A stretch of 64,000 nucleotides of DNA, taken from the sequence record MK817115.1; one strand, given 5' to 3'. The notes below the pieces were generated by a model. The model was not told where the DNA came from and did not search any database. It worked only from the letters and a program-made list of their open reading frames with translations. The stretch is from Escherichia phage vB_EcoM_phAPEC6. Position 1 is the stretch's first letter. Each line of letters starts with the position of its first letter. The translations under genes and the position numbers were made by a program. This document shows, in pieces, positions 18,646 through 53,142 of the stretch.

Positions 18646-18669
18646 TTCGTTATCCTCATCAGTTGATGA

Positions 18670-18708
18670 AATAATTATAACAAAAAGGGCTGACCGAAGT
18701 CAACCCTT
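18670..18708 (-). promoter_or_regulatory. Composite terminator/early promoter element
   Basis: Minus strand: GGGTTGAC-UUCG-GTCAGCCC hairpin + T-run; the stem carries TTGACT, followed ~18 nt later by TTATAAT. Confidence 0.7.
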
Positions 18709-18712
18709 TTGT

Positions 18713-20599
18713 TTAGTTTTTTTTCACCCCACCCCATTTTTCATAGATTGCAATAATTTTATCTATGTTGTTTGGTGTAGTAGTTTCAGTATAACCATCT
18801 GGCATTTCTTGTTTAGTTAAAACGCCTTTACCAAATAGTTTTTTACATTCTTTTTCAGCTTCCTTACACTCAAACACAGATGTGAAAAAATACGTATGTA
18901 ACGATTCAATTTTAAATAATGATTTTTTATTTTGCTGCATAACCCTCTTACCTTTCTGCTTTTCAATACCATATTTCAATGCTACAGATAAATCACCATC
19001 CAAAATATTATGAATATATGCATATTGCTGAGAATGACCAGCCGCAAGTGGATGACCAGACCCACAAAGGTGACTTGCTGGAGTTTGCCAAAAGTCTCCA
19101 TACACTGGATGAGTTATTAATACTTTCGTTGAAGAATTTACATAATCAACTTTATCATAATTATATAAGTTATTATGAACTTCATTTGCTTTAATTTTAA
19201 ATTCATCACATGTATAAGGAACACCACCTTTGACTTTCGGGTGTCCTTTACCTGCCAAATGCCCATTTGGAGTTTGCCAAAAGTCTCCATACACTGGATG
19301 AGTTATTAATACTTTCGTTGAAGAATTTACATAATCAACTTTATCATAATTATATAAGTTATTATGAACTTCATTTGCTTTAATTTTAAATTGAGTTAGA
19401 TTTTTTATTTTAAAGTTAGCTGTATCATATTTCAAACTGTTTTTTAAATGTGTTAAGTGATTTTGTGGTGTACTTTTGAATTCTCCGTAAATTTTATGAA
19501 CTATAGTTACAGGTGTACTTTGATTTATATAGTTTACTCTATCATAGATATATTCTCCACTTGATTTGAACTCCAAGCACTTTTCTATAAATGTTTTAGT
19601 ATCTATATTTTTACAGTTTCCACAAGTTTTTAAATTTCTGTTCATTATAACGTCCACAGATATATCGTATTCACACCCACATGATTTATAACATACTTTA
19701 ATTTTCTTTTTTGTACCAACATCATCAGGTATTAGGATTGGTGTAATAAGTTGATTGTTAGGTGAACATTTGTAAAAATAATATAAAAAATTATTTTTTG
19801 TATAATGTGGTCTATGTACTATATTATTATTGATCAAATATGATGCTCTGGAAATACGATATAATACTCCTTCGTGTTCCGTTATTACAGGAGTTTTTTC
19901 ATTTTTCCATTCACTAAGAGATGATATTGCATATCCAATAATATTTTTACCAACCGACAATGCTTTTTCTTTCATTTTTTCGGCAAGACCGTAACCATGT
20001 TTTTTCATTTCCAATGGTGAAATCCACGAGAATGCAACATCATCCCCAAATATAAAATGGGAAATTGTAACACAATCATCATCAGTAGTCATGGATGTAT
20101 ATTCATTGTTATCTTCGATTTCTGATATTAATTCAGATTTACATTTAGAACAATTACAACCGATTTCATCACCCAGTGTAGAAATAGTAAGCGTTTTTTT
20201 AGTTCCATTTTTACAAATATATGGTATTTTTGTTGAATTATTTTTATAAACTTCAACTTCACCACTAACTGTATCAATTATGCCACCATAAGTACTAATC
20301 CAAGAATTAATTCTTTCCCTAACAATTAAAATATCTAAACTTTTAGCATGACCATTATACCAGTCTTCACATTCAGGACAACCAAATTTTTTAGATGGGT
20401 GTGTGAGGTTTGCGTGATCCATAAGATATACTTGTGATATGCCTGATTTGTGTTTTAATACATCATTGCAAACTACTTGGATGTTTTTTAATTTGGCATT
20501 TTCATACTTACTATAATCAGCTTCAATTGGAACGTTATGTTCTAATACTTTATTGTTGAATTTTTCTTTTGCTTGTTTAGGGGTTAATTTAGCTGGCAT
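18713..20599 (-). CDS. Cys-rich 628-aa protein with three tandem ~63-aa repeats
   Basis: Multiple CxxC pairs; repeat FKIKANEVHNNLYNYDKVDYVNSSTKVLITHPVYGDFWQTP occurs twice identically; AAAGGAG RBS. Confidence 0.7.
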   Translation of the reverse strand: MPAKLTPKQAKEKFNNKVLEHNVPIEADYSKYENAKLKNIQVVCNDVLKHKSGISQVYLMDHANLTHPSKKFGCPECEDWYNGHAKSLDILIVRERINSWISTYGGIIDTVSGEVEVYKNNSTKIPYICKNGTKKTLTISTLGDEIGCNCSKCKSELISEIEDNNEYTSMTTDDDCVTISHFIFGDDVAFSWISPLEMKKHGYGLAEKMKEKALSVGKNIIGYAISSLSEWKNEKTPVITEHEGVLYRISRASYLINNNIVHRPHYTKNNFLYYFYKCSPNNQLITPILIPDDVGTKKKIKVCYKSCGCEYDISVDVIMNRNLKTCGNCKNIDTKTFIEKCLEFKSSGEYIYDRVNYINQSTPVTIVHKIYGEFKSTPQNHLTHLKNSLKYDTANFKIKNLTQFKIKANEVHNNLYNYDKVDYVNSSTKVLITHPVYGDFWQTPNGHLAGKGHPKVKGGVPYTCDEFKIKANEVHNNLYNYDKVDYVNSSTKVLITHPVYGDFWQTPASHLCGSGHPLAAGHSQQYAYIHNILDGDLSVALKYGIEKQKGKRVMQQNKKSLFKIESLHTYFFTSVFECKEAEKECKKLFGKGVLTKQEMPDGYTETTTPNNIDKIIAIYEKWGGVKKN

Positions 20600-20828
20600 T
20601 ACTTAAAACTCCTTTCCAGTACTGAACCCGTCCAGCACCATTAATCTTAGCCTGAATCTTATCTTTTTCGACAAGACCTTCTTTGTAATCGATGGAAGTA
20701 TTATCACACTTAATTACATCCAAGTCAAGTACTTCTTGTGTACTTAATGAAGTATTGTCTGCAATTTGTTGTAATGTAATTATATCAGTACCGAAGAATT
20801 CTGCTAAACGTATAAAAGATAGTTTCAT
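20589..20828 (-). CDS. Hypothetical small protein
   Basis: 79 aa; GAGAGG RBS; immediately downstream of a composite promoter element. Confidence 0.55.
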   Translation of the reverse strand: MKLSFIRLAEFFGTDIITLQQIADNTSLSTQEVLDLDVIKCDNTSIDYKEGLVEKDKIQAKINGAGRVQYWKGVLSNAS

Positions 20829-20849
20829 GTATTACCTCTCGTTTCGATA

Positions 20850-20889
20850 AAATAATTATAGCAAAAAGGGCTGACCGAAGTCAACCCTT
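20850..20889 (-). promoter_or_regulatory. Composite terminator/early promoter element
   Basis: GGGCTGACCGAAGTCAACCC hairpin plus ATAATTATAG -10 region, near-identical to the element at 18670. Confidence 0.7.
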
Positions 20890-20893
20890 TATG

Positions 20894-21253
20894 TTATTCT
20901 AACTCACTCATTGTGGCGATAGTTAATCCCATTTCTTCTGCAATGTTGCATAGCAAACCAACTGCATTACGAAGAATATCAGTGTTGTCCACCGAGAATG
21001 ATGAGTTTTCATTTACAGTTGAAGACTCAATGTAGTACTCAAAATAACGAGAAGTTGAACGCACAACTTTAACACCTTCATACTTCTGTAGTTCAGAGTT
21101 GATACGCTCGATGAGCGAATCTTCCAGTACTCGATAGTCACCATTCATTCCACGTTTCCATCCATCAGCAGGACGGAAATAAAAAGTTTTTGTACGTTGA
21201 ATTGTTGAGATTGTTAGTGGGTTGTATTCTGCGATTTCACTTAAAGATGCCAT
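20894..21253 (-). CDS. Hypothetical protein
   Basis: 119-aa minus-strand ORF. Confidence 0.55.
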   Translation of the reverse strand: MASLSEIAEYNPLTISTIQRTKTFYFRPADGWKRGMNGDYRVLEDSLIERINSELQKYEGVKVVRSTSRYFEYYIESSTVNENSSFSVDNTDILRNAVGLLCNIAEEMGLTIATMSELE

Positions 21254-21316
21254 GTTGTATTCCTCATTTTCTTTGTTACATGATACTGAAAGATAAAACT
21301 GGTGTTAATGTTTTTT

Positions 21317-21751
21317 TTAGATCATAGAACGATAATACTCAGGTAACTCAACATCAGTAAATTTATACCACGTAGGCTTCATCTGGAGCTTCTCAATCAA
21401 ACGTTCACGAGACATTTTAATCTCTGACTCCGTTGGTATGTAGTCATTACAAAACTCAGCAGGGAAGCCGCTAATGTCGTTTACTTCAGTGTTTTGAATC
21501 TTCATACCACGACGCAGACATTCGTTGACAATATCAATATGACGCTTCTGTAAGTACAGTAACTTGTCGTAGAAAAATGTTACATGACCTGAACCTAACA
21601 GATAAGTACTGTTAATTTTGAAATCACGTACACGCTTACGTGCTTGAACGTGTTTTTGTACAGCACCAAATACACGTGGGAGTTCACGATATTCAGCCAT
21701 CAGATGTTGGTCAGCAAGTTCTTTAACGTGTACTAAGTTAATGCGTGTCAT
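21317..21751 (-). CDS. denV: Endonuclease V (pyrimidine-dimer DNA glycosylase), T4 DenV homologue
   Basis: [48 protein letters not shown] matches T4 DenV as I recall it; GAGAGGA RBS. Confidence 0.9.
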
Positions 21752-21774
21752 GTATTCATCCTCTCGTTTCGATG

Positions 21775-21814
21775 AAATGATTATAGCAAAAAGGGCCGAC
21801 TGAAGTCAACCCTT
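21775..21814 (-). promoter_or_regulatory. Composite terminator/early promoter element
   Basis: GGGCCGACTGAAGTCAACCC hairpin variant + T-run; GATTATAGC -10 region. Confidence 0.65.
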
Positions 21815-21907
21815 TTTTTTTCTTTCAATCAAACATAGTCTACCAGAATGTACCATGCGATGGTGATTAGAACAAAGAATCATACACTTCTTCATTGTTT
21901 AATCCAT

Positions 21908-22243
21908 TTATTCAACAATCCCCAACTTCACAATCTCATACCCGTCCAGATAGCCGTAGGAACACTCAGGTGTTTCATAAGATGAACCATCATGGATGCC
22001 TTGGCATTGACTTTTGGAATTCTCAAGCAATCGTTGCAGTACTGATACGTCATCAAGAACGTAATACAAGTTAGCATATAGGTCAGTTACAATACAGTAC
22101 TCCAACATATCAAATGTATCAATCGAAATTTCAACCTTAGCAAATCGTTTCTTTTCTTTATTATACAGTGCGTACATATTAATCTCCATAATCAAGTTTA
22201 ACCAACTTACCACACAGATACCCAAAGTTTTCTGGCTTCGCAT
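21908..22243 (-). CDS. Hypothetical protein; possible C-terminal part of a split kinase-like gene
   Basis: 111-aa ORF overlapping the end of 22179..22550 in another frame. Confidence 0.4.
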   Translation of the reverse strand: MRSQKTLGICVVSWLNLIMEINMYALYNKEKKRFAKVEISIDTFDMLEYCIVTDLYANLYYVLDDVSVLQRLLENSKSQCQGIHDGSSYETPECSYGYLDGYEIVKLGIVE

Positions 22244-22550
22244 CTGAATAGAAGAAGTCAGTACTTAACTCTGAATTCAATGCTAAAGCACACAACTCCA
22301 CCCAAAATAAACCCCTATGTTGTACTGGCTTACAACGTTTCTGTACAGTTACTAGTCCAGTACATGATGACCACAAAGTAGGACAGATACCAGTATCACT
22401 ACGCTTGGAGTACTGCATCCACGAACGTTCATTGAGGTTAGCTATCATCCCTGTTAAGAATAGCTTCCAACTTTTAAAGGTTGGAATCTTGATAGCGTAT
22501 TCCCCAATGAGGATAACAGTTCGGGTTGCACCTTTCAAATCTATATTCAT
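22179..22550 (-). CDS. Protein kinase-like N-terminal fragment
   Basis: Gly-rich loop region then YAIK, catalytic-loop-like DAKPEN and DFG-like LDYGD; ORF stops right after. Confidence 0.5.
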   Translation of the reverse strand: MNIDLKGATRTVILIGEYAIKIPTFKSWKLFLTGMIANLNERSWMQYSKRSDTGICPTLWSSCTGLVTVQKRCKPVQHRGLFWVELCALALNSELSTDFFYSDAKPENFGYLCGKLVKLDYGD

Positions 22551-22560
22551 ATTATTTTAA

Positions 22561-22812
22561 TTAGAAGAACACAAACCAAGTCCAGAATAAATTCCACACT
22601 ACAAATAAAGACATAGTGGTTTTATGTACAATATCAGCAGTACTGGTCCATCCTCCACCGTGTCCTATTCCATTTATGAATAGAACTAAGAACAAGATAC
22701 CATTTACTACAATAGTACATAGTAAGTACACAAACACATTCCATGCAAGTTCAGGGGATACTAACGTAAATGGTAAAACAATTAGTAGTATTAGAACTAA
22801 TAAAATTTTCAT
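22561..22812 (-). CDS. Small membrane protein
   Basis: 83 aa, hydrophobic. Confidence 0.55.
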   Translation of the reverse strand: MKILLVLILLIVLPFTLVSPELAWNVFVYLLCTIVVNGILFLVLFINGIGHGGGWTSTADIVHKTTMSLFVVWNLFWTWFVFF

Positions 22813-23028
22813 TTATCGCCTCACTTAATTAACGTGACAATTAGTACGAATCAGATTCCCAGTACTCGATTGCTTCTTTCAGCAATTCTTTAGCACGTTG
22901 TTTTGCAATGCGAGCGGGTAACAGATATGTGTACATTAACTGACGCTTCACTTCATTCAGTGAAAGCTGTTCATGGTACAGTGCATCCATCAGTCGATTA
23001 CGAGTACGTAGTTTCATATAAGTTATCC

Positions 23029-23583
23029 TTATTTCAAAGAATCATAGTAAGCAGTGTCAAAGATTGGAGTCATAATAACATAGTCAATACGGTCAATGTA
23101 AGTTGAACTCCACATTTCTGGTTTGTCATAAAATTGACGTTCGCGTTCATTCATACGAGTCAGTACTTCTTCCAATTTACTACGTGAAGCCATCAATGTA
23201 TTACGCGATCCATAAGTGAAGTACTCAGTCCATTGATATTCATATTCAGTACTGATAGATTGAATAGTACCATCTTTGAAATGAGCTAATGCATAACCTT
23301 TCTCTACAAAGTTATCAGGTGGAAGAACACCATCTGGATTAGTTTTCAATGCTTTTTCTAACTTTTCTTTAATTTCAGTTAACGTGCATACTGAACGAAT
23401 GTTCTTCAGGTTTGATACTTGAAAATCACTGTACTTTCCAAAGAAAAATACACGCCAATCTTTAGGTTCATTATCAGATACGGTAACATCAGGATGATGG
23501 GCGAGTAAACGAAGAAGGCCAGCTTTGTGACCGTTAATGTAGATTTCATGGATGTGGTTAGCAGTTTTCTTAAAAGTAATCAT
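23029..23583 (-). CDS. Hypothetical protein
   Basis: 184-aa ORF downstream of promoter 23631-23659. Confidence 0.6.
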   Translation of the reverse strand: MITFKKTANHIHEIYINGHKAGLLRLLAHHPDVTVSDNEPKDWRVFFFGKYSDFQVSNLKNIRSVCTLTEIKEKLEKALKTNPDGVLPPDNFVEKGYALAHFKDGTIQSISTEYEYQWTEYFTYGSRNTLMASRSKLEEVLTRMNERERQFYDKPEMWSSTYIDRIDYVIMTPIFDTAYYDSLK

Positions 23584-23630
23584 GGTAGTTCCTCGATTGT
23601 AGGGATGAGAAGTTCATCCCCTTGATAAGC

Positions 23631-23659
23631 ATTATACAGTACTGAATGTGTTTGTCAAC
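23631..23659 (-). promoter_or_regulatory. Sigma70-like early promoter with CAGTACTG in the spacer
   Basis: Minus strand: TTGACA-aacacattCAGTACTG-TATAAT. Confidence 0.65.
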
Positions 23660-24055
23660 TCAAAATAAATTCATTTCATGTGCGTATTGTGGTTCAAGAT
23701 AAGATAAGTTTTTGAAACTGTCTTTCAATTCCGCATCATCTACGTACACAGTACCAGGTACATTCCCCATAGTGAAGCCAACCCAAACAGTCATGTTTCC
23801 AGTTCCTAAGCGGGGCATTGATAGCGTCCCGTCAGGTGAAACATCAAACGCTACACTAAAGTCATCCGTTACAACTTCCGAACCATTTTCCAGAATAATA
23901 CAACCACGTTCTTTAAGCTTCTGAATGTGGATAGCAGCCTCTACTGCACGTTTAAAGTTATAATAAGACTCTTTATCCTCGAACATTGATTGTTTAACCA
24001 GACGCTTGTTTAGCTCGGTTACTTTGTGCATTTGACGCATTACTTCAACTCCCAC
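23660..24055 (-). CDS. Hypothetical protein
   Basis: 131-aa ORF. Confidence 0.55.
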   Translation of the reverse strand: MGVEVMRQMHKVTELNKRLVKQSMFEDKESYYNFKRAVEAAIHIQKLKERGCIILENGSEVVTDDFSVAFDVSPDGTLSMPRLGTGNMTVWVGFTMGNVPGTVYVDDAELKDSFKNLSYLEPQYAHEMNLF

Positions 24056-24294
24056 AGTTGTAGAATTTCATAAGAGCCTGGTGGTGCTGGATTGATAATC
24101 TCAGGGTATTCAGTACTGTTAGGATTACCACCAGCATTGAACTCAGCAAGTAATAATTCGAGTTCATTCCTATCATGTACAACAAACACGCAATATCCAG
24201 TTCCTTCTTCAAGAACTGTAGTTGATCCCGCACAATCCCATACGGCATCAATACATAATAATTCTTTAGTGTTTTTATTACGCAACGCAAACAT
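24040..24294 (-). CDS. Hypothetical protein
   Basis: 84 aa; AGGAG RBS; preferred over the overlapping 24045..24347 frame. Confidence 0.5.
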   Translation of the reverse strand: MFALRNKNTKELLCIDAVWDCAGSTTVLEEGTGYCVFVVHDRNELELLLAEFNAGGNPNSTEYPEIINPAPPGSYEILQLWELK

Positions 24295-24303
24295 ATATGT
24301 CTC

Positions 24304-24648
24304 CTATCGATTCGGCATATTCTTTCGTAGTCGCAAGAGAAATTCAACCACTGACCATGTTGTAATGAAGGCTATATAAGTTGCAAGGAATCCAGTAAGA
24401 ATAAATGCAACCAGCGTACTACCATTTGGGGAATCAGTTTTAATGCCGATGACACCATCGGCTACAGTGAAACATGTAGCCATTAATGTGTAACCTACGT
24501 ACAACACAAAGAAAAACTCATTCTCCATTGAAGGATAGAAACGGTTAAACACTTTATAAAATTTAAAGTACAGTAGGATTATACCAACAAAGGCATAGAA
24601 TGTAAACAGTGTTGTTATAATATATGAGATTAGGTTCAAATTATACAT
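24304..24648 (-). CDS. Small multi-pass membrane protein (second cluster of the family)
   Basis: Start set to ATG 24648 (GGAG RBS); hydrophobic; tail LRKNMPNR. Confidence 0.55.
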   Translation of the reverse strand: MYNLNLISYIITTLFTFYAFVGIILLYFKFYKVFNRFYPSMENEFFFVLYVGYTLMATCFTVADGVIGIKTDSPNGSTLVAFILTGFLATYIAFITTWSVVEFLLRLRKNMPNR

Positions 24649-24649
24649 A

Positions 24650-24997
24650 TCAACGCTCCGGTAGATTATCACGTAATGTTTTAATTCGATGATACATTTT
24701 CATACCAATATTACCAAAGATACCATATCCAAGTACTAAAATGTATGCAATAAGCATAGTAATAATTACTATAGTGCCAAAACTATAATGTACACTACTG
24801 ATACCCATTGTAGTTTCAACGATTATTTGAGAAACTGAAAGAATCAAAAGTACAACTACAATTGGATGATTTGGGTACATTCGGTTGAACAACGTTTTGT
24901 ACTTAAAGAAGCACAGTACTCCACCGAATAAGAAGTAAACAATGTAAATGCAAGCAACAGCATAGGCAAACATGTTAGTGTAATAAATCATTACCAA
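24650..24997 (-). CDS. Small multi-pass membrane protein (second cluster of the family)
   Basis: 115 aa hydrophobic; tail LRDNLPER. Confidence 0.6.
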   Translation of the reverse strand: MVMIYYTNMFAYAVACIYIVYFLFGGVLCFFKYKTLFNRMYPNHPIVVVLLILSVSQIIVETTMGISSVHYSFGTIVIITMLIAYILVLGYGIFGNIGMKMYHRIKTLRDNLPER

Positions 24998-25000
24998 TCC

Positions 25001-25339
25001 TTACTTTTCAGGGATATTAGAACGCCATATATCAATGCGATGAACTAGTCCAAAGAACAACCATACTGGAACGGCAGCTATCATAACAACAAATGAAAAC
25101 CCAGTCAAGACCGATACCAGATTTAATTCATCAGTACTATACCCACATATCAGTACTTCTAATATTCCCCACGTACATGCACAAAACATCAAGAATGAAA
25201 TTGGGGCATCATAGTAGATACGTTCATATAAAGTAGTGTATCGGAAGAATGCAATAATGTAGCAAAACATATAATACACCCAAACCAAAGATACTACATA
25301 AAATGATACTTTGTTTATTAATTCAAAATATTGTTCCAT
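25001..25339 (-). CDS. Small multi-pass membrane protein (second cluster of the family)
   Basis: 112 aa hydrophobic; tail WRSNIPEK. Confidence 0.6.
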   Translation of the reverse strand: MEQYFELINKVSFYVVSLVWVYYMFCYIIAFFRYTTLYERIYYDAPISFLMFCACTWGILEVLICGYSTDELNLVSVLTGFSFVVMIAAVPVWLFFGLVHRIDIWRSNIPEK

Positions 25340-25341
25340 TT

Positions 25342-25623
25342 TTACCCCAATATATATTCAGAGAGTAATGTATTAGCTTCATCTTTGTTCTTAAGGTAAT
25401 ACATGTAATATAGATTCGGTTCACCATCTTTAGAACTCAAATCGAAGTTCTTTAAACTATGTACTTTCATAGTAAAAACAAATAATGACTTAAAACCAAT
25501 CTCACCGTACTTAATAAACAGTTCATCCAAATGAATGTAACTTTTTGATTTGGATAATTCTTTAACGTCTGCATCAATTTCAGATAAAAGATGCTTACCT
25601 ATTAAGTTTTCAAATGAACGCAT
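25342..25623 (-). CDS. Hypothetical protein
   Basis: 93-aa ORF. Confidence 0.5.
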   Translation of the reverse strand: MRSFENLIGKHLLSEIDADVKELSKSKSYIHLDELFIKYGEIGFKSLFVFTMKVHSLKNFDLSSKDGEPNLYYMYYLKNKDEANTLLSEYILG

Positions 25624-25684
25624 GATTTTATCCTTTACCGCAATTTTTATGGTTTATTAAGAATACACCAGAACATCAGTTCTG

Positions 25685-26326
25685 TCAATAAAAAACTGGA
25701 TCTTCTTCAGTAACTGGTATTTCTCTACGTACATCACACGAAAGAGGATCAGTAATGAATACATTGCCATCTTTATCCATCATGACATTACTGGAATGAA
25801 TGTCTGGTACAAAACGCCCGTGAAACTCTTTCATGATGTTAGCAGCGACCGTCGCAATAGCAATCTCTTCAGAATTACCACGCATATCATTCACTGAAGT
25901 AGCGTACTGACCAGCATGTGCATAAGAATATAAATCTCCAATTTTAGTACTAACAAAGTCATCATAATTATTTTTTTGTTTAATTATAGGATAGTACTTG
26001 TCCATCTCATACCATCCAAAGTTTCCTTGTTCGTTTGCACTGTAGATCACTGGAAGAAACTTGGTTCCTGCGTTTTCAATGCAGTACTTTGCATAAGCAC
26101 GAAAACCATCCCAGCGTGAAGTGGTTACTTTAAATGCACGTCCAGGATAGTTTTTATGTTCAACTACTACAGAGTACATCCCCATTCCAAGCAAAGTAAG
26201 TCCAGCAGCTTTAACTTGTGGAAAGATTACGCGTTCAGCATAAGGAATATCAAACTCCATCGCACAACGAGTTTTTGATGGACGCAAAATGTCAATTAAA
26301 GTTTTGAATATTTCTTGCTTAGTCAT
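25685..26326 (-). CDS. Putative atypical kinase-like protein
   Basis: Start set to ATG 26326 (GAGGA RBS); LLGMGMYSVVV, AFK, then DIHSSNVMMDKDGNVFITD resembling a kinase catalytic loop plus DFG-like segment; weak. Confidence 0.4.
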   Translation of the reverse strand: MTKQEIFKTLIDILRPSKTRCAMEFDIPYAERVIFPQVKAAGLTLLGMGMYSVVVEHKNYPGRAFKVTTSRWDGFRAYAKYCIENAGTKFLPVIYSANEQGNFGWYEMDKYYPIIKQKNNYDDFVSTKIGDLYSYAHAGQYATSVNDMRGNSEEIAIATVAANIMKEFHGRFVPDIHSSNVMMDKDGNVFITDPLSCDVRREIPVTEEDPVFY

Positions 26327-26354
26327 TACTTTATCCTCTGTAGTTAATATCAAC

Positions 26355-26390
26355 ATCATAACAAAAAAGGCTGACCGAAGTCAACCCTTT
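26355..26390 (-). promoter_or_regulatory. Composite terminator/early promoter element
   Basis: GGCTGACCGAAGTCAACC hairpin + T-run with embedded TTGACT and TATGAT -10. Confidence 0.65.
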
Positions 26391-26395
26391 TATTA

Positions 26396-26815
26396 TCATT
26401 TACAGTTTTCTATAACTATTGCACGTTTTAGTATTTTACTTTCATAAACATACTTAAGATGACCTTCTTCACGAATACGATTGAACACATATCCTAGTTT
26501 ATCTTTTAGTACTGAAGCGGTATCAATGTCAAGATTAACTTCAACCCCTCCTGTTAATTTAACTTTATATGTAAAGCTAAAAGCATCACCAGATTCAACC
26601 AATGGGACTACTTGTTCATACGTATTCAACATAACTCGTTCATCATTAACTAAATTATATATTACTATATCACAAGTTTTTACCCCAATTTCCTCTAATG
26701 TAGGAGCATTATCTACTATAACATCTTTTACTGTATTTGCAACCTGTTTAGCATCTGCTGCATATACATTAAAACTAAAAAGTACTAAAATAATACTTAA
26801 AAAAATCTTTTTCAT
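26396..26815 (-). CDS. Secreted small protein (signal peptide)
   Basis: MKKIFLSIILVLFSFNVYAADA signal-peptide-like N-terminus; AAGGA RBS. Confidence 0.6.
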   Translation of the reverse strand: MKKIFLSIILVLFSFNVYAADAKQVANTVKDVIVDNAPTLEEIGVKTCDIVIYNLVNDERVMLNTYEQVVPLVESGDAFSFTYKVKLTGGVEVNLDIDTASVLKDKLGYVFNRIREEGHLKYVYESKILKRAIVIENCK

Positions 26816-26824
26816 TATATATCC

Positions 26825-27148
26825 TTATTTTATTTTACATGTCATATCGGGTTGTGCTGGTTTATTATTTTTAAACGGATTAGGTTTTTTATCTTTCTTT
26901 TTATCTTTTAAAGGTTTTTTGTCTTCTTTTTTATCTTTATCTTTGTCTTTTTTATTTTTATCAGGTTCAGAGGGAGTATTACATTGTGCTGGGGGTTGAT
27001 TAGTTGGAGTACAGCTATTGTCTGATGGGAGTATTACTTCTTTACAATTGTAAAATAGTAAACTTTTATTTGTGGTTAAATTATGAAAACGATAGTTACG
27101 TTCATTATTATAATAAATTGTTTTAGTACTTTCAATGTCATTGCACAT
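26825..27148 (-). CDS. Hypothetical protein with Lys/Asp-rich low-complexity tail
   Basis: KDKDKDKKEDKKPLKDKKKDKKP; weak RBS, start uncertain. Confidence 0.4.
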   Translation of the reverse strand: MCNDIESTKTIYYNNERNYRFHNLTTNKSLLFYNCKEVILPSDNSCTPTNQPPAQCNTPSEPDKNKKDKDKDKKEDKKPLKDKKKDKKPNPFKNNKPAQPDMTCKIK

Positions 27149-27158
27149 TACTACTGAA

Positions 27159-27410
27159 TCACCGGAACTCTTTTTCTATTCCCATTACATCAGTCTTATG
27201 CTCAGATAGTATACCTGAAGTATATGAATCTTTGTTGTCAAACACATTAAATCCAATAGTTCTGTCGGTGTCGTGTATTATTCCTTTTGTGTATGAGGTA
27301 GTATAGAACTCCCCATTTCTGAAATCCTGCCTTGCTACGGAGCAATGATAATCTGCACCATAAGCAGTACTGGAAAATAATACAATTCCAAATATAATAT
27401 ATTTTTTCAT
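27159..27410 (-). CDS. Secreted small protein (signal peptide)
   Basis: Start set to ATG 27410 (AGAGGG RBS): MKKYIIFGIVLFSSTAYGADY; the ORF-track extension runs into the promoter element. Confidence 0.55.
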   Translation of the reverse strand: MKKYIIFGIVLFSSTAYGADYHCSVARQDFRNGEFYTTSYTKGIIHDTDRTIGFNVFDNKDSYTSGILSEHKTDVMGIEKEFR

Positions 27411-27444
27411 TGTAATCCCTCTTCTTAATTCCTCTTTTGTATTT

Positions 27445-27474
27445 ACAAAAAAAGGCTGACCGAAGTCAACCTTT
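27445..27474 (-). promoter_or_regulatory. Composite terminator/early promoter element
   Basis: AAGGCTGACCGAAGTCAACCTT hairpin + T-run; TTGACT then GTAAATAC. Confidence 0.6.
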
Positions 27475-27481
27475 TGTTTTA

Positions 27482-28759
27482 TCATTTACCGTATTTGCTC
27501 ATGATGTCCTTTTCCCAAGGAGTTACATTTCCATTTTCGTAATCACGGAAAGAGTCATCAAGTGTAGTCAATGCATAATCATATGCCTCACCGGATTCAA
27601 CATCAATATCAACAGCACCATTCACTACATCAGTCCACGCTTTTTGTAGTTTACGAGCGTTGTTACCAACTTTATCTTTAATCCAACTAAGATTTCGGTT
27701 TATACTCTTCTTATCAGCACCAGCTTTTTCACCAACATCTGCAACCCATTGCATTAATTTCTGTAGTTCGTTATGGGATTTTTCAGTCATTTGGCGGTCT
27801 TGTGACAGTTCAGCTTCCATGTCATCAATTTCTTCGTCTGAATGAACATCGTTCTGTTCTACTGCACCTTCTTCATCATCACGCATCAGATAACCATCTC
27901 GTGTAACCTTCTCACCATGATCAGCTTCATACTTTTTCATAGTATTGAATGCAGCATCCATTGCAGTTACAAAACGACTCTTTTCACCTTGTACATAAGA
28001 TTTAAGTGCATCGTTAACTGCATCAGATACTAATTTAATCTTATCGTCTTTACCTTCCAGACGGTTTTCTAACTTAGCTAGTACATTCTTAACTTGTTGA
28101 GCATTAGCACGGTCTTCTTTACCAATACTATCAAATGTTTTAAGTACGCTTTCAAGACTTACTTCCTCTTGTGCAGGCACATCACCTTGTTGCGTACCTT
28201 CAAGTGCACGCATTATAGTACTGAATACTTCAGTTGGTTCAGTACTGGTATTTCCACTCATTGCATCAAGCACAGCTTGTGCTTTGACTTTTAATTCTTC
28301 TTTAGGTACAGATTGCAATTCTTTCACAATACCTTGGATAAGTTGTGGTTTATTAGCAAAAATCTTACCTAACTTATCAGACAGTTCTTTGACAGGGTTA
28401 ACCGCCTTTGGTGCTTCTTGTTTTGGTTCTTCTTTCGCAGGAGCAGACTTTTCTTTTTCTTCACGTTCCATATCAGCTAGACGTTGTTTTTGTGTAGCAT
28501 TAAGAAGTCCCAATGAATTAACATAACGTAGCTTTTCTAGCTCAGTCATGTTCTCAGTACTCTTAACTTCACCTGCTTCTGCGTTTGCTTTACCAGCTAG
28601 ACCAGTTCCTTGGTTACGTGACCCACGTGAACCTTGACCTGCTTGATAACTATTTGGACGGCGGTTGCGTTCACTCCATTTATCAGAGTGACCAGCCATG
28701 TTACCACCATTTTTATCAGTAAAATTACTTGGCATTTGATTTCTCTCCATAGATTTCAT
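27482..28759 (-). CDS. Lys/Glu-rich 425-aa protein, paralog of 29005..29388
   Basis: Shares YVNSLGLLNATQKQ and IVKELQSVPKEELKVKA blocks with the 127-aa neighbour; TATAAATA box ~16 nt upstream of ATG. Confidence 0.7.
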   Translation of the reverse strand: MKSMERNQMPSNFTDKNGGNMAGHSDKWSERNRRPNSYQAGQGSRGSRNQGTGLAGKANAEAGEVKSTENMTELEKLRYVNSLGLLNATQKQRLADMEREEKEKSAPAKEEPKQEAPKAVNPVKELSDKLGKIFANKPQLIQGIVKELQSVPKEELKVKAQAVLDAMSGNTSTEPTEVFSTIMRALEGTQQGDVPAQEEVSLESVLKTFDSIGKEDRANAQQVKNVLAKLENRLEGKDDKIKLVSDAVNDALKSYVQGEKSRFVTAMDAAFNTMKKYEADHGEKVTRDGYLMRDDEEGAVEQNDVHSDEEIDDMEAELSQDRQMTEKSHNELQKLMQWVADVGEKAGADKKSINRNLSWIKDKVGNNARKLQKAWTDVVNGAVDIDVESGEAYDYALTTLDDSFRDYENGNVTPWEKDIMSKYGK

Positions 28760-28777
28760 TTTTTCTCTATGTCTATA

Positions 28778-28816
28778 TTTATAGTATAAAGAAAAGGCTG
28801 ACCGAAGTCAACCTTA
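28778..28816 (-). promoter_or_regulatory. Composite terminator/promoter element (carries TATAAATA)
   Basis: GGCTGACCGAAGTCAACC hairpin; minus strand then reads TTTATACTATAAATATAG. Confidence 0.6.
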
Positions 28817-28821
28817 TTTTG

Positions 28822-28935
28822 TTACTTAGATTGTTCTTGTGCAGGTGGATTTACTTTTTGATCCACTACATAGAATACACCACCAACCAGTACTGCGGCG
28901 ATGAGTGCAGCAACTACAAATTTCAAACCTTGCAT
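28822..28935 (-). CDS. Small 38-aa membrane peptide (not in ORF track)
   Basis: ATG at 28935 after GAGG; MQGLKFVVAALIAAVLVGGVFYVVDQKVNPPAQEQSK; flanked by two composite elements. Confidence 0.45.
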   Translation of the reverse strand: MQGLKFVVAALIAAVLVGGVFYVVDQKVNPPAQEQSK

Positions 28936-28957
28936 ATATGATACCTCAGTTATATTG

Positions 28958-28992
28958 AGAAGTTATGATACAACAAAGGGCTGACCTTAGTC
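28958..28992 (-). promoter_or_regulatory. Composite terminator/early promoter element (variant)
   Basis: GGGCTGACCTTAGTCAACCCC hairpin + T-run; TTGACT then TATCAT. Confidence 0.6.
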
Positions 28993-29004
28993 AACCCCTT
29001 TTTA

Positions 29005-29388
29005 TTACTTCTTGAACTTATGTTTTTCACTTTCGATTGCATTCACGATTTCATCATGAATTTTACGAAGATTGTGAGTTTTCTTTAGAGATTCATGTAA
29101 TGCACGGAATGCAGAGTGTACAGTTGCTTTAAAGTGCTCTTTAGGAGTTACTTTAAGTTTCTCGATAATATCACGTACATAGATTGGGTGATCCTCAAAC
29201 ACACGATTAAGCTCATGACCTAGTGATTCTAGGCTAAATGCTTTTTCACGGGATGGACGATCATGTGCAAGACTTTGGTCTGGTTTTAGAAGACCTAGTG
29301 AATCTAGATACTTGTGCTTATGTGCATTGTCTAGACCAGAAATATCAACATCATGTGATGGATCTTTCTTATTCCATTTATCAACCAT
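29005..29388 (-). CDS. 127-aa protein, paralog of the 425-aa K/E-rich protein
   Basis: HKYLDSLGLLKPDQS and IIEKLKVTPKEHFKATV align with 27482..28759. Confidence 0.65.
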   Translation of the reverse strand: MVDKWNKKDPSHDVDISGLDNAHKHKYLDSLGLLKPDQSLAHDRPSREKAFSLESLGHELNRVFEDHPIYVRDIIEKLKVTPKEHFKATVHSAFRALHESLKKTHNLRKIHDEIVNAIESEKHKFKK

Positions 29389-29503
29389 TTTTATAACTCC
29401 TATAAGAGATAAATTTTACTATAATATTTATAGTTCCGTTGTCATTTATATCGAATGACATAAAACATTATATCATAATAAGAATGGTTGTCCCAAAGTT
29501 AAA

Positions 29504-29977
29504 TTAGTACTGATCAAGTTCAGATGTAAAAATGAATGCATCCATGTCTTCCAACGTAAGTTTTAAGTCTGGTACATACTTAAGAATAACGCACTCTGGC
29601 TTCTTAATAGCAGCTTGATAAGCAGCAATGGCAAGGGATTCCAACTGCTGTGCTGTATAATTTTTACGTTCTGCATTAAAAACTTTGTTTTTGATATCAC
29701 CACCTGGGAGTTTTTCAAACTCACGCATAACTGCGGTAAGAACATCGTCAGCAGTGTTACTATATACCCATTGGGGTAATTGCATTACATTATAAATCAC
29801 ACCACTATCATCCATCAAAGAGATCCATTTGTACCCATCACTAGCACTGAACAAACGCCCTTTTAGTACTGTGTTATTAGTTAAATTTACAAATGCAAAA
29901 ATATCTTGTTCGTTAAGTTCAATACTATTAACATTTACCCAACTCATTACGATTCCCCATTCATAAATCACGAACAA
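29504..29977 (-). CDS. Hypothetical protein
   Basis: 157-aa ORF. Confidence 0.6.
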   Translation of the reverse strand: MFVIYEWGIVMSWVNVNSIELNEQDIFAFVNLTNNTVLKGRLFSASDGYKWISLMDDSGVIYNVMQLPQWVYSNTADDVLTAVMREFEKLPGGDIKNKVFNAERKNYTAQQLESLAIAAYQAAIKKPECVILKYVPDLKLTLEDMDAFIFTSELDQY

Positions 29978-30557
29978 TATTCATTAAACACAATTTAGGT
30001 TTTATAGCATTCAACACCCATATGCATTCTTTGTAAGTAGCTATTATATCATCTAAATGCTCAGTTACAATGCTTTCTTGAAAATATTCTTCATCATTGA
30101 GCTTTGCTAATTTAGTAACATCACACGTAGGCACTATAGGTCTGGATTGTACACCCATTCCATTATTGATATTAGTGAAATGTACAAAATGGTACTTCAC
30201 AACACCTTTATCTAGATTTATTATACATGACAAATTTTCCAACTCAGTTAGTTTTTTATTACAAGTAACATTAATGAAACCAGCATTATAGGCTCTATAA
30301 TCATCTACTGATATCTCAAAATCATTACGTTCAAATATAAGTGAAATGAGTTGGTCCAGTGGTTTGACATTCATATATTTTAATGAATTTACGTATGATA
30401 CTTCAATCTTAGATGAAATTATCTTTTTACTAAGTGCAGTTAATTCTTTGTTAGATTTAACTGTTAAAACAATATGTTTAAACCTAGAACTTTTGTTCTT
30501 TTTTGATACTTTAAAACGACCTTTACGATTCATAATTTCCTCAATTAATAATTTCAC
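29961..30557 (-). CDS. Hypothetical protein
   Basis: 198-aa ORF. Confidence 0.6.
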   Translation of the reverse strand: MKLLIEEIMNRKGRFKVSKKNKSSRFKHIVLTVKSNKELTALSKKIISSKIEVSYVNSLKYMNVKPLDQLISLIFERNDFEISVDDYRAYNAGFINVTCNKKLTELENLSCIINLDKGVVKYHFVHFTNINNGMGVQSRPIVPTCDVTKLAKLNDEEYFQESIVTEHLDDIIATYKECIWVLNAIKPKLCLMNIVRDL

Positions 30558-30762
30558 ATTTAACGTGTGGTTTATATAGCATAATTAACCCATTTTTAAG
30601 TACAATGATTGTTGCTCTGTTAGTAATCGAAACGTTTTTAATTATACTTTTTTTATATGTTTCAACATATTTCTCTTCATAATTTATACATTTAATATAT
30701 TCTTTTTGTTTAGCACTTACAACAGTACTGAATAATATCAGTACAAGTACTATATATTTCAT
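30541..30762 (-). CDS. Secreted small protein (signal peptide)
   Basis: MKYIVLVLILFSTVVSA N-terminus. Confidence 0.5.
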   Translation of the reverse strand: MKYIVLVLILFSTVVSAKQKEYIKCINYEEKYVETYKKSIIKNVSITNRATIIVLKNGLIMLYKPHVKCEIIN

Positions 30763-30814
30763 TACTATACCTTATAAACAAAAAGGAATTCATTTAAGAA
30801 TTCCTATTTTACAA

Positions 30815-31108
30815 TCATTTATCTAACATACCATTGTGCAAACGTTCATATACTTCAGTTCGACGCAAATTAACAATATCTTCTGCGTATTTTAATGTAA
30901 ATGCCCATGCTTTTGGATGTACGTTAAGCTTCATACGAATTCGATTTTTCATCAACTCTCCACTTAAACGAATAAATTCGTGTACACCACGACTACCGTA
31001 TTCAGTAATTAAATCATTAATGTACATATCACGAAGAGTTTCATCTGCACATTCTTTAACCATTTCTACGTCAGCGACGATGCTTTCATTAACTGAAGTA
31101 CTGATCAT
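30815..31108 (-). CDS. Hypothetical protein
   Basis: 97-aa ORF. Confidence 0.55.
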   Translation of the reverse strand: MISTSVNESIVADVEMVKECADETLRDMYINDLITEYGSRGVHEFIRLSGELMKNRIRMKLNVHPKAWAFTLKYAEDIVNLRRTEVYERLHNGMLDK

Positions 31109-31120
31109 TTTTAATTTACC

Positions 31121-31387
31121 TTATTTAAATTCGACTGTAATTTTATCACCTTCAACTACGAACTTACAGTTGTAGCGACGTGCCATATCCATGTACATAT
31201 GCTCAGAGTACCAAGGAACATCAATAATCGGATGCTCTGCATATTGTAAAACTTCACGGTCGCCCACTGTAGTAATGATGAAAGGAATGTTCATCTCTCG
31301 TAAAAACAGTTCAGCACCAGGAGAACGATTAATAAATTCAGTATCATTACGTAAAGTAAATCCATTATATTGTAATTTAAGCTTCAT
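31121..31387 (-). CDS. Hypothetical protein
   Basis: 88-aa ORF. Confidence 0.55.
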   Translation of the reverse strand: MKLKLQYNGFTLRNDTEFINRSPGAELFLREMNIPFIITTVGDREVLQYAEHPIIDVPWYSEHMYMDMARRYNCKFVVEGDKITVEFK

Positions 31388-31401
31388 ATGTTATCCTCTA
31401 T

Positions 31402-31746
31402 TCAATACCATTCTTTAAAACCATTAAGTTCGGCTACGTGAGTGATTATAACACATATAACATTCAGGTCAAGTATAATTTGATCATAATTTAATTTTAT
31501 ACGATCATCATTATATGCTCTAAAAACTACATCGTAATCAAAGAAATTTGCGTTTTCATCATTCATTGAAACGATTCGGTATCTACGTCTTCCATCTGTA
31601 TTGAATATAGTTAAACACTGTTGAAACTTTCTCATTAACTGTTTAGATAGGATATTATAATATTCAATATCTTTTTGTGAATTACGTGGGTCATCAGGAA
31701 GATAGAATGAAACAAATTTCTTTAATTCTATTTGAGTTTTATCCAT
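31402..31746 (-). CDS. Hypothetical protein
   Basis: 114-aa ORF. Confidence 0.55.
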   Translation of the reverse strand: MDKTQIELKKFVSFYLPDDPRNSQKDIEYYNILSKQLMRKFQQCLTIFNTDGRRRYRIVSMNDENANFFDYDVVFRAYNDDRIKLNYDQIILDLNVICVIITHVAELNGFKEWY

Positions 31747-32179
31747 ATATTACCTCATTTGTTTCTCTTTTACTTTGTCGGAACTCATCCTTTGCTTCCT
31801 TAACTGACATGATACGAACTAATTTAGCACTACCGCAATAGTACTGAACCTGATTACGACCAATGTCTACATGGTGGTCTGGAACTTCATATACAGATAT
31901 AGCAAACCCAGCACGATGCAATTTACCTAAGTCCATAGTGAAGAATCTGAACAAATCTTTCAAACTTTGACAGCCAAATACCCATCCACTTTTGATTGAA
32001 TAAATCCCATCCTCAGTTGGTTCAGGTTGGAATTGAGAAGGTGTAGTCATGAGCAAACGGTCAAATCCATTTTTAGTACTGTATCTGGTTGAATACCGTG
32101 CAAACGGACCTACAGTTCGTGCAGGATCTAAGTTAGGTTCAATGTAACTAAATTTAAGTTCAAAACGATATACATACAT
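31739..32179 (-). CDS. Hypothetical protein
   Basis: 146 aa; AGAGGA RBS; immediately downstream of a composite promoter. Confidence 0.6.
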   Translation of the reverse strand: MYVYRFELKFSYIEPNLDPARTVGPFARYSTRYSTKNGFDRLLMTTPSQFQPEPTEDGIYSIKSGWVFGCQSLKDLFRFFTMDLGKLHRAGFAISVYEVPDHHVDIGRNQVQYYCGSAKLVRIMSVKEAKDEFRQSKRETNEVIYG

Positions 32180-32206
32180 AATTAAAATCCTCTAATTTAT
32201 TAAGAG

Positions 32207-32243
32207 AATTATAACAAAAAAGGCTGACCGAAGTCAACCTTTG
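32207..32243 (-). promoter_or_regulatory. Composite terminator/early promoter element
   Basis: AGGCTGACCGAAGTCAACCT hairpin + T-run; TTGACT then TTATAAT. Confidence 0.65.
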
Positions 32244-32425
32244 TTTTGAAGTTCTTGAACTAATTGTCGTACTTCGTTAATATTTTTACACTGCTTTACA
32301 GTGAAGTAATCATACTTACGACCATAGGTTCTTGGGTCATCACCTTCCATATACTGCTGCACATCAAAGATTTGTAAGTAGGGATGCTGCATAACACGAA
32401 TATTATCACTTTGATAAATCAACAT
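32234..32425 (-). CDS. Hypothetical small protein
   Basis: Start set to ATG 32425 (AAGGA RBS) to remove a 50-nt overlap in the ORF-track call. Confidence 0.45.
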   Translation of the reverse strand: MLIYQSDNIRVMQHPYLQIFDVQQYMEGDDPRTYGRKYDYFTVKQCKNINEVRQLVQELQNKG

Positions 32426-40053: not shown

Positions 40054-40670
40054 TGGATATTCCTTAATGGTTAATCATCCATCTCTTCGAGATGTCTGTT
40101 CGCTTCTAATACTACGTATTCTACGCGAATGATTAATAACTGTCAAGGACTTTTAATATTGACGGGATTTGAGGAAGGGATTTTTCTTCCCCCCACAAGG
40201 AGGGAAATTTGACGCTGATGGTATCAGAGCTATTGCATTGAAGATTACTCATAACGAGTGCGAAAGCGGGTCATCCTGTTTCTCTCTACTTCAGTTTCAT
40301 ATGACGGTCTACACTTTTAAACATAGTGTATCTTCATTAAGTATCTATGCAATCAAATACTTAATGTGAGTACTCAAATTTTGGACGCAACTTTCCTGTA
40401 CAAAATTCGATAACTCTCCCTTAGATAATTCGTAAGGTGTTATCCTTATATGTCTATCAAGGAACCACCAGCTATCCTAACGTGGTTCTTTATACAGCCG
40501 CATTGCCGTGAGGGGTTCAAACTATGCCCACATCTAACGGGTTTCTTTTGCTGTTCGCACTGTCGGACTGCTCAACTGCCCTCTACGTTTTCGAGTGGAT
40601 CAGGTACATGAATATCATGCCAACAGAATTGTACAAGATAATTATATCACAAACTTTTACTTCATCCCAT

Positions 40671-40700
40671 AAAAAAAGGTTGGCATAAGCCAACCCTTGT
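40671..40700 (-). terminator. Intrinsic terminator after the sigma-factor gene
   Basis: Minus strand: GGGTTGGC-TTAT-GCCAACC followed by TTTTTTT. Confidence 0.65.
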
Positions 40701-40703
40701 TCT

Positions 40704-41669
40704 TTAGAAATCTTCGTATTCGTACCCTTTTGCAAGTACTAACTTCTTAAGCTTTTGCATAGCTTCACTGTACTTTCGGTGTATTGATGAACGGGATTTA
40801 ACATATTTTCCATTATCATCAACAAAACCATTATCAGCAATCTCACGAAGCGTTTCAGGTTCATATTCACCTAGACCATGAACACGCTGGATAATCTCAC
40901 GTTCTTTAGTACTCAATTCGTTAGTTAGTTCATTGATAGCATAACGTAAAGGTGCACGGATACTATCAACATTGAGGTTAAAATCAGAAGCAGGTGAATG
41001 AATAATGTCACCTAATGTACCATCTGTAACACCGTCTAATGGTGCATCCAGTGAAGTGTATTCGCTTTGAAATAATAAACAATTATTAACATGCTGAATC
41101 TCAATCCCAGTACCCTCTGAGATTATTTCAGGTGTTGGGCGAACACCATGTTTACGCATATATTCCTGGCAGAATCTTTTTACTTTGATCTTATGAACAC
41201 TCATATAACGTGGGAAGTGTACCATATAGTTAGCGTCAGAACTTTCGTTATAAACTGTCATGTAAATACTAGAAGAAGCATAGGTAATGAACTTCACATT
41301 CTTATTAAGATCAAAGGTTTTTAGTGCTCTCATGAACCCCTCAACACCATATGAAATCTTATCTTCAAATGGGATATAACAAGTACATTTACTTGCTACA
41401 TCAATAATAAGTCCATAATTGTAACGAACTAACAGTTCAGTGTTTTTCTTTACATTGATACCAGCTTGAATATCACGAATTAGATCTTCATTGGAAACAT
41501 TTGGTGGTCGCTTAAGTGTAATATTATATTTGAAACTGCTTTGTACTTTACCTTCATTTTCATCTTTATCTTCAACGAAATCTAAGGCTTCTAGTGTGTT
41601 GACTTCTTCATTAGCAAAACATTCATCCAGAACTTCTTCGGCAATTGTATTTAAATCAAGCTTTTTCAC
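40704..41669 (-). CDS. Sigma-70 family RNA polymerase sigma factor
   Basis: Region-2-like LLVRYNYGLIIDVASK ... GVEGFMRALKTFDLNKNVKFITYASSSIY and a region-4-like C-terminus (EREIIQRVHGL ... TLREIADNG). Confidence 0.6.
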   Translation of the reverse strand: MKKLDLNTIAEEVLDECFANEEVNTLEALDFVEDKDENEGKVQSSFKYNITLKRPPNVSNEDLIRDIQAGINVKKNTELLVRYNYGLIIDVASKCTCYIPFEDKISYGVEGFMRALKTFDLNKNVKFITYASSSIYMTVYNESSDANYMVHFPRYMSVHKIKVKRFCQEYMRKHGVRPTPEIISEGTGIEIQHVNNCLLFQSEYTSLDAPLDGVTDGTLGDIIHSPASDFNLNVDSIRAPLRYAINELTNELSTKEREIIQRVHGLGEYEPETLREIADNGFVDDNGKYVKSRSSIHRKYSEAMQKLKKLVLAKGYEYEDF

Positions 41670-52939: not shown

Positions 52940-53029
<90 letters not shown>

Positions 53030-53041
53030 AGAAGTAAGATA

Positions 53042-53142
<101 letters not shown>

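Follow-up and report, generated by a model that had tools for sequence, protein, structure and literature searches.

Can one short intergenic repeat both end the transcript of one gene and start that of the next? This question is raised by an element that recurs in Escherichia phage vB_EcoM_phAPEC6 (record MK817115.1), of which we analysed a stretch of 64,000 nucleotides, referred to here as the window. The phage belongs to Asteriusvirus, a group of Rak2-like jumbo myoviruses with genomes of ∼350 kb. A sequence-only reading of the window had proposed that eight intergenic sites carry a UUCG-tetraloop terminator with the -35 hexamer of a sigma70 promoter built into its stem. On the evidence given below, we consider it likely that each copy is an insulating cassette of the kind called promoter-early stem-loops (PeSLs), with terminator and sigma70 promoter residing in the same bases.

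We scanned the whole window for GGGCTGACCGAAGTCAACCC, allowing up to 2 or up to 3 mismatches, with shuffled sequences as control. Eight matches were found on the plus strand, at 18687, 20868, 21793, 26368, 27453, 28795, 28978 and 32221, against 0 in the shuffled sequences. A covariance model covering the entire module, built from 56 modules and run over the window with filters off, recovered exactly the same eight copies, each on the minus strand and with a score of 50-62 bits; the next-best match reached 19.8 bits (40664-40705). The modules span 18669-32249 (13.6 kb) and are read on the minus strand, which is the coding strand for all genes from ∼14.6 kb onward. All eight sit between a stop codon and the next Shine-Dalgarno (SD) sequence and ATG, in the same orientation as the genes. 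The count of eight intergenic sites was therefore confirmed exactly. On the minus strand, each module is ordered as an A-tract, GGGTTGAC-TTCG-GTCAGCCC, T5, G(C/T) and TATAAT; downstream of the -10 comes a leader of ∼22-35 nt with a GAGG SD sequence, and then ATG. The proposal that three copies share their whole 5′ untranslated region held for two of them, 20868 and 21793, which have identical ATCGAAACGAGAGG, but only in part for 18687, which has ATCAACTGATGAGG.

Folded as sense-strand RNA, the copies form hairpins of -13.8 to -19.4 kcal/mol (z -4.5 to -6.3), each with an 8-bp stem and a tetraloop, whereas on the opposite strand the stem has a C·A mismatch. Five to seven U residues follow the stem directly in 8/8 copies, as in intrinsic terminators. 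The hairpin and U-tract of the sequence-only reading were borne out, with the correction that the 3′ arm is GUCAG, containing a U·G wobble, and not GUCAA. The loop is UUCG in six copies; the other two have UUCA (21793) and UAAG (28978). Canonical intrinsic (Rho-independent) terminators likewise have a GC-rich 8-bp stem, a tetraloop, a U-tract and an upstream A-tract. The module differs from them in that a -35 hexamer fixes the sequence of its 5′ arm and that an extended -10 comes directly after the U-tract.

This -35 hexamer, TTGACT, is overlapped by the stem, an arrangement known among PeSL stem-loops. A -10 hexamer matching at least 5 of 6 consensus bases (TATAAT, TATGAT, TATACT or TATCAT) follows at the sigma70 spacing of 17-18 nt in 7/8 copies, five of which also have the TGn of an extended -10. 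The spacing claimed by the sequence-only reading thus stood in all copies except 27453, which has no credible -10. The 18-nt spacer of copy 1 is made up of 3 loop bases, the 8-nt 3′ arm, 5 U and 2 further bases. Upstream of the -35 lies AAAA(A)GGG, with the A-tract directly 5′ of GGG; Estrem et al. (1999) reportedly gave the UP consensus as AAAAAARNR, which the A-rich stretch upstream of the -35 resembles. The A1 and A3 early promoters of coliphage T7 also have TTGACT as their -35, and we know of no T7 early promoter with a terminator built into its -35 and spacer. Were the copies independent, a correctly spaced -10-like hexamer would be present in 7 or more of the 8 with a probability of ∼2e-7, a value that overstates the case because the copies form a repeat family. 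The TTGACT / 17-18 nt / TGnTATAAT geometry is kept in the orthologous copies of eight relatives and in other phage groups.

Could the element be a terminator alone? TTGAC and the TATAAT-like run in AT-rich DNA would then be there by coincidence, and expression of the downstream genes would depend on read-through or on promoters elsewhere. The identical hairpin does serve as a plain terminator in unrelated bacteria such as Acinetobacter, Exiguobacterium and Bacteroidota, annotators of GenBank records and of phage CBB give a terminator alone, and one window copy has no -10. However, a -10 with at least 5/6 matches, usually with TGn, lies at exactly 17-18 nt in the other seven copies and likewise at promoter spacing in 119/128 non-redundant modules from other phages. 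Loops drift and the 3′ arm exchanges A and G without loss of pairing, but the 5′ arm does not vary, an asymmetry that only a second function of TTGAC would lead one to expect. The distance to SD and ATG is constant, 25 modules have a conserved ATCGAAAC that begins exactly 7 nt past the -10, and PeSL promoters have been shown to be active (PMC2839356). A terminator without promoter function is an improbable account of these features.

Further evidence came from the way in which the two arms vary. The stem with the U·G wobble (GUCAG) had 56 exact matches in IMG/VR, against 5 for the perfect palindrome. Orthologous copies in eight Asteriusvirus genomes all had the 5′ arm GGGTTGAC; the 3′ arm changed only between A and G opposite U (GUCAG, GUCGG, GUCAA), and the loop drifted (UUCG, UACG, UUUA, UUUG, UUCA, UAAG). 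A fixed 5′ arm with a 3′ arm that keeps only its pairing is the pattern expected if one arm serves as -35 and in pairing, and the other in pairing alone. In a set of 115 distinct GGTTGAC-N4-GTCAGCCYTTT modules from viral contigs, 68 (59%) had UNCG or GNRA tetraloops, compared with ∼5% expected (12/256 tetramers). The outermost stem pair covaries (GC 42, AU 8, GU 4, UA 2, unpaired 0). These comparisons indicate that selection acts on the repeat as an RNA hairpin of the same orientation as the genes.

The same data bear on the opposite possibility, a promoter only, in which the inverted repeat would be bound, as a DNA operator, by a dimeric regulator of phage or host that shuts off early promoters, or would extrude as a cruciform, and no termination would occur. 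Overlap of a palindrome with the -35 is a classic operator position, and a second promoter class in the window has a palindrome, CAGTACTG, between -35 and -10. As DNA, however, the arms are asymmetric (TTGAC vs GTCAG), and this asymmetry is kept 56:5. Substitutions are limited to the 3′ arm and always exchange A and G opposite U, preserving RNA pairing and not DNA symmetry; the loops are enriched for the RNA-stabilising UNCG and GNRA, the stem is always followed by a U-tract, and copy 27453 retains hairpin and U-tract in the absence of a promoter. A symmetric DNA operator does not predict the wobble, the arm asymmetry, the loop enrichment or the covariation of the outer pair. We rejected this reading, whose chances we rate as slight, on strand asymmetry and loop statistics. 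The element offers a clear example of dual coding, in which one 20-nt palindrome is under DNA constraint (-35) on one arm and under RNA pairing alone on the other, as is directly visible in the pattern of substitutions.

We propose that a PeSL-type module works as follows. Transcription from upstream would yield GGGUUGAC-UUCG-GUCAGCCC and then UUUUUGU, giving an 8-bp hairpin with a C(UUCG)G tetraloop. This hairpin, GGGTTGAC-UUCG-GUCAGCCC, would act with the U-tract as an intrinsic terminator, and in copy 1 would release RNA around 18680, i.e., at the -10. Read as double-stranded DNA, these bases would form a host sigma70 promoter. The A-tract and GGG resemble a proximal UP subsite, TTGACT consists of the final 5 nt of the 5′ arm and the first loop base, and the remaining loop bases together with the 3′ arm, U-tract and TGn make up the 17-18-nt spacer exactly; initiation would occur 7 nt after the TATAAT -10 (A18667 in copy 1). 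Since the new mRNA would start without the hairpin, it would not be terminated by its own module. The predicted outcome is a string of early units of one or few genes each, separately initiated and terminated. Where the TGA stop of the upstream open reading frame (ORF) coincides with the TGA within TTGAC, as in copy 8, it lies in both the -35 and the 5′ arm of the hairpin, so that the same three bases would be stop codon, promoter element and terminator stem together. We infer termination, initiation by E-sigma70 and early timing from these features and from the genes concerned: the modules precede a T7 gp0.7-like protein kinase (by the annotation of phage 121Q), denV and an AAA-type ATPase, the other following genes having no Pfam match, and the placement of kinase and denV downstream of modules fits early expression.

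The region in which the modules lie is plastic, with eight copies within 13.6 kb among many small ORFs annotated without function; only 2/9 flanking ORFs have Pfam matches. It shares 99.1% identity with Escherichia phage vB_Eco_slurp01, and 97-99% with the aligned parts of 121Q, PBECO4, SP27 and JP4. Relatives carry 7-10 near-identical module copies per ∼350-kb genome, and 8/9 copies found in 121Q fall in the corresponding region. We compared positions 15-36 kb of the window with eight relatives for insertions and deletions (indels). The cassette between copies 2 and 1 is absent from SP27 and UE-S1, and those between copies 5 and 4 and between copies 7 and 6 are absent from UE-S1 (coordinates in Table 1). 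In each case, one chimeric module remains at the junction, combining the upstream flank of the upstream module with the leader and gene of the downstream module. Extra module-bounded cassettes were found in Turkey3 and JP4. As has been described for PeSLs, the junctions of these indels between close relatives lie within the element.

Clusters of homology breakpoints fell within modules in 10/41 cases, modules being 3.4% of the sequence (binomial P ∼8e-7 under a uniform null), but the excess is small against a gene-junction null (∼25% of clusters vs ∼18% of junctions). The informative recombination signal is the module-to-module structure of the three precise indels. This structure shows the copies to double as recombination joints. 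Homologous recombination between copies would delete or insert whole gene cassettes, because the copies are ∼45-bp direct repeats, and would leave the regulation of the neighbours undisturbed. The Turkey3 copy corresponding to 32221 has gained ..TATTTCATCAA.. in its leader, and leader swaps between orthologous modules suggest conversion among copies. Gain and loss of cassettes between direct repeats would account for part of the variation in early-region gene content among these ∼350-kb genomes. Inside the 628-aa ORF of one variable cassette, we also observed an exact 125-nt direct repeat (19079-19203 and 19268-19392), the two copies lying 189 nt apart; it showed up as cross-matches in the comparison with slurp01.

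Copies at indel junctions, and a core common to several phage groups, would also be seen if the element were selfish or merely repeated, i.e., similar to a miniature inverted-repeat transposable element or a site for a site-specific recombinase, its regulatory appearance being secondary. Neither terminal inverted repeats beyond the hairpin nor target-site duplications were present, however, and the copies are strictly intergenic and co-oriented with genes; the transposable-element version was rejected on these grounds. Moreover, every conserved position has a terminator or promoter function, and orthologous copies stay before the same genes (kinase, denV) across genera. A selfish origin is, in our estimation, very unlikely.

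Among the closest known counterparts of the module are the PeSLs of the T4-like phages RB49 and phi1, composite elements of five positional subclasses, one with the stem-loop overlapping the -35 (Arbiol et al. 2010, PMC2839356). There, the stem-loop cut lacZ expression about as strongly as rrnB T1, a PeSL promoter gave ∼13,000 Miller units in a lacZ fusion, and recombination of neighbouring PeSLs produced mini-circles (PMC2839356). Like the Asteriusvirus modules, these PeSLs combine a sigma70 promoter and a stem-loop between stop codon and SD, lie among ORFans and form recombination joints (PMC2839356). They differ in having polyG/polyC stems, mostly placed between -35 and -10 or over the -10 (PMC2839356), and share no sequence identity with the module.

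In a later study, the concept was widened to PST/T4 and nt-1/KVP40, with a stem-loop consensus A3-4G3-loop-C3T3-4, and the nt-1/KVP40 elements resemble ours in being intergenic, set in hyperplastic regions and tied to indels (Comeau, Arbiol & Krisch 2014, PMC4122927). We found the same core, AAAAGGGTTGAC-N4-GTCAGCCCTTT..GTATTAT, in the KVP40 and VH7D loci. The KVP40 carriers are Schizo-T-even vibriophages, which are T4-like, whereas the present carrier is a Rak2-like jumbo myovirus. Loop AGAU is common in KVP40, compared with mostly UUCG in Asteriusvirus, and the KVP40 -10 is TATTAT at a spacer of 17, compared with TATAAT at 18. The published text places the stem-loop 'just upstream' of the promoter, with TTGYVH as -35 (PMC4122927), whereas the sequences analysed here show overlap.

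Asteriusvirus is not among the T4-like myoviruses, the sole group with described PeSLs; this restriction to T4-like phages is a limit of the original sampling and not a mechanistic criterion. Other annotators have independently taken these hairpins for terminators: the CBB paper has separate lists of 18 RpoD-like promoters and 74 terminators, with GGGTTGACTTCGGTCAGCCC in the terminator table only (-16.8 kcal/mol), and the GenBank record of UE-S1 labels module sites 'terminator'. The Rak2-like literature that we searched does not note a composite promoter-terminator nature. The element fits best among the PeSL-type cassettes and is new for the Rak2-like phage group; it extends such cassettes from T4-like to Rak2-like jumbo phages. 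Knowledge of the cassette improves the annotation of transcription units, and an insulator of ∼46 bp that ends and restarts transcription would be a compact part for synthetic biology.

Every sequence-level test agreed with the proposal that a single module ends and restarts transcription, but several points weigh on the other side. Copy 27453 lacks a -10, so bifunctionality is not universal. The authors who described PeSLs themselves used the term 'terminator/attenuator' (PMC2839356). A search of the literature found no 5′/3′ end data or transcriptome for this phage or any Asteriusvirus. Finally, Rak2-like phages encode a sigma-like factor of their own (CBB paper), so that use of host sigma70 is deduced from the consensus match only.

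Only tRNAs reached the gathering score in Rfam scans of the window. A sub-threshold match to MicX, a small RNA of Vibrio cholerae (28787-29012, minus strand; 26 bits vs a cut-off of 75, E 0.027), covers modules 7 and 6 together with the 37-aa ORF that they flank, and a second one, to STnc50 (27 bits vs a cut-off of 55), overlaps a module. Both were rejected and are probably terminator look-alikes.

The module is not confined to Asteriusvirus. Matches to a 36-nt module were found in 303 GenBank phage records. Among the carriers are Rak2-like jumbo phages infecting Escherichia, Klebsiella, Cronobacter, Serratia, Erwinia and Xanthomonas (Mimasvirus), as well as Straboviridae (Schizotequatrovirus, Ceceduovirus) and Vequintavirinae (Certrevirus); an exact match of 26 nt is present in Brochothrix phage A9 (Herelleviridae). 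The core common to several phage groups is 26-36 nt long. Such near-identity raises the question of whether regulatory parts were transferred or converged upon. Each conserved alignment column has a terminator or promoter role, and further clamps and stems built on the same plan exist. A scan of bacterial genomes found 50 exact 18-mers, compared with ∼17 expected from size alone, of which ∼23 are plain terminators without promoter, for example in the bacteria named above. The bare hairpin thus recurs as a bacterial terminator, so that its identity is by itself no evidence of homology, and together with the functional columns and same-plan variants this makes convergence on a constrained design plausible. 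Given the sigma70-spacer geometry (3 loop nt + 8-nt arm + 4-5 U + TGn = 17-18), this exact sequence could be an evolutionary attractor, which would account for the copies of the Gram-positive Brochothrix phage A9 and the Aeromonas phage copies, alike in the hairpin-to-(-10) part only.

Similarity extends further in other cases. ATCGAAAC occurs in 30/129 modules overall, against 1.7 expected. The best pair of Rak2-like and KVP40 modules has 21/24 equal bases after the -10, where the null maximum was 17, in a segment not enforced by the search pattern. About 75 nt, from the A-tract to the leader ..CTACATCGAAACGAnAnnnACTAAC, can be aligned across Rak2-like phages, KVP40-like Straboviridae and Vequintavirinae-like contigs; this stretch includes hairpin, -10, discriminator and transcribed leader. 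All-vs-all blastp of 111 module-adjacent ORFs found no homologues common to the named phage groups, so any transfer would involve the regulatory part alone. We tentatively suggest, at somewhat less than even chances and from sequence likeness, that the cassette of terminator, promoter and leader may move horizontally between unrelated phage groups, in place of many independent inventions; the alternative is that the leader is also under convergent selection.

Two observations concern the region past the -10. A leader ATCGAAACGA(A/C)A..ACTAAC at the predicted +1 is common to several phage groups, being carried by nine loci in addition to window copies 20868 and 21793. The +1 region ATCGA.. / ..GAAACGA.. 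may resemble the initial transcribed sequences of T7 A1 (ATCGAGAGGG) and A3 (ATGAAACGACAG). Some modules of relatives are followed not by an ORF but by a small hairpin, ..CTAACCC-N4-GGGTG.., ∼25-35 nt after the -10; it was seen at nine loci, one of them in 121Q outside the window, and may represent a small non-coding RNA made from the module promoter. Literature searches with the core and leader strings returned nothing relevant.

Table 1. Positions of the module copies, their parts and associated features in the window.
Feature	Position	Strand	Score (bits)	Details
Module copy 1	18669..18715	minus	62.5	
Copy 1, upstream stop codon TAA	18715-18713	minus		
Copy 1, hairpin	18706-18687	minus		loop UUCG 18698-18695
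Copy 1, -35 TTGACT	18703-18698	minus		5 bases of 5′ arm and first loop base
Copy 1, U-tract	18686-18682	minus		
Copy 1, TGn	18682-18680	minus		
Copy 1, -10 TATAAT	18679-18674	minus		
Copy 1, predicted +1	A18667	minus		
Copy 1, SD GAGGA	18657-18653	minus		ATG 18645
Module copy 2	20850..20896	minus	60.8	loop UUCG; TGCTATAAT; leader ATCGAAACGAGAGG; 79-aa ORF downstream
Module copy 3	21775..21821	minus	59.5	loop UUCA; TGCTATAAT; 3′ arm GUCGG, giving two U·G pairs; denV (pyrimidine dimer glycosylase) downstream
Module copy 4	26350..26396	minus	56.8	-10 TATGAT with TGn; 213-aa ORF downstream, T7 gp0.7-like protein kinase by 121Q annotation
Module copy 5 (27453)	27436..27481	minus	50.2	hairpin intact; 7-U tract; no credible -10 (TGTAAA/TAAATA); terminator-only
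Module copy 6	28778..28823	minus	51.6	spacer 17; -10 TATACT; 417-aa ORF downstream
Module copy 7	28960..29006	minus	53.8	loop UAAG; -10 TATCAT; hydrophobic 37-aa ORF downstream, flanked by copies 7 and 6
Module copy 8	32203..32249	minus	54.7	TGTTATAAT
Copy 8, TGA stop of upstream ORF	32234-32236	minus		equals TGA within TTGAC
Cassette between copies 2 and 1	18714..20845	minus		628-aa and 79-aa ORFs
Cassette between copies 5 and 4	26404..27447	minus		three small ORFs
Cassette between copies 7 and 6	28821..28962	minus		37-aa ORF
Related hairpin	40677..40696	minus	19.8	GGGUUGGC-UUAU-GCCAACCU and U-tract

The related hairpin listed last has a compensated stem and is without embedded -35 or -10, making it a relative and not a full module. 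The surrounding minus-strand interval 40253-40703 (451 nt) contains no ORF of at least 30 aa. It begins with a variant hairpin, GGGTTGGCTTATGCCAACC, and a run of seven T, with a -10-like TGTGATATAAT ∼25 nt past the hairpin, and is a possible non-coding transcript.

A second, unrelated composite repeat was observed on the plus strand between 1183 and 13060, with nine copies near 1183, 2400, 3580, 6029, 7291, 8097, 9321, 10605 and 12988. It consists of a hairpin GCCAGTACT-TGA-TACTGGC with a T-rich tract, followed by near-identical TATTAAATATAGTATAATGAATAAGGAGG..ATGTTACCTT. To judge by its sequence, it looks like a terminator, a promoter-like TAAATA/TATAAT, an SD and a conserved MLP.. N-terminus, placed before tandem plus-strand genes.

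The palindromic octamer CAGTACTG occurs 37 times in the window, compared with 0.77 expected, and at many intergenic sites lies between a TTGACA -35 and a TATAAT -10. This arrangement makes these sites a second recurrent class of putative promoters, without terminator hairpin. Minus-strand promoters of this type end near 23631, 33982, 37950, 38290, 54815, 55275 and 55685. CAGTACTG also forms the arms of several terminator-like hairpins, and it may be a site to which a regulator binds. Seven tRNA genes (Thr, Asn, Met, Ser x2, Arg, Gly) are interspersed with promoters of this type at 52950-57192 on the minus strand. Lastly, tandem small ORFs (∼105-122 aa) lie on the minus strand at 24304-25339 and 17124-17809; neighbours within them share 24-33% identity (E 1e-9 to 6e-4), which suggests that these runs arose by old tandem duplications.

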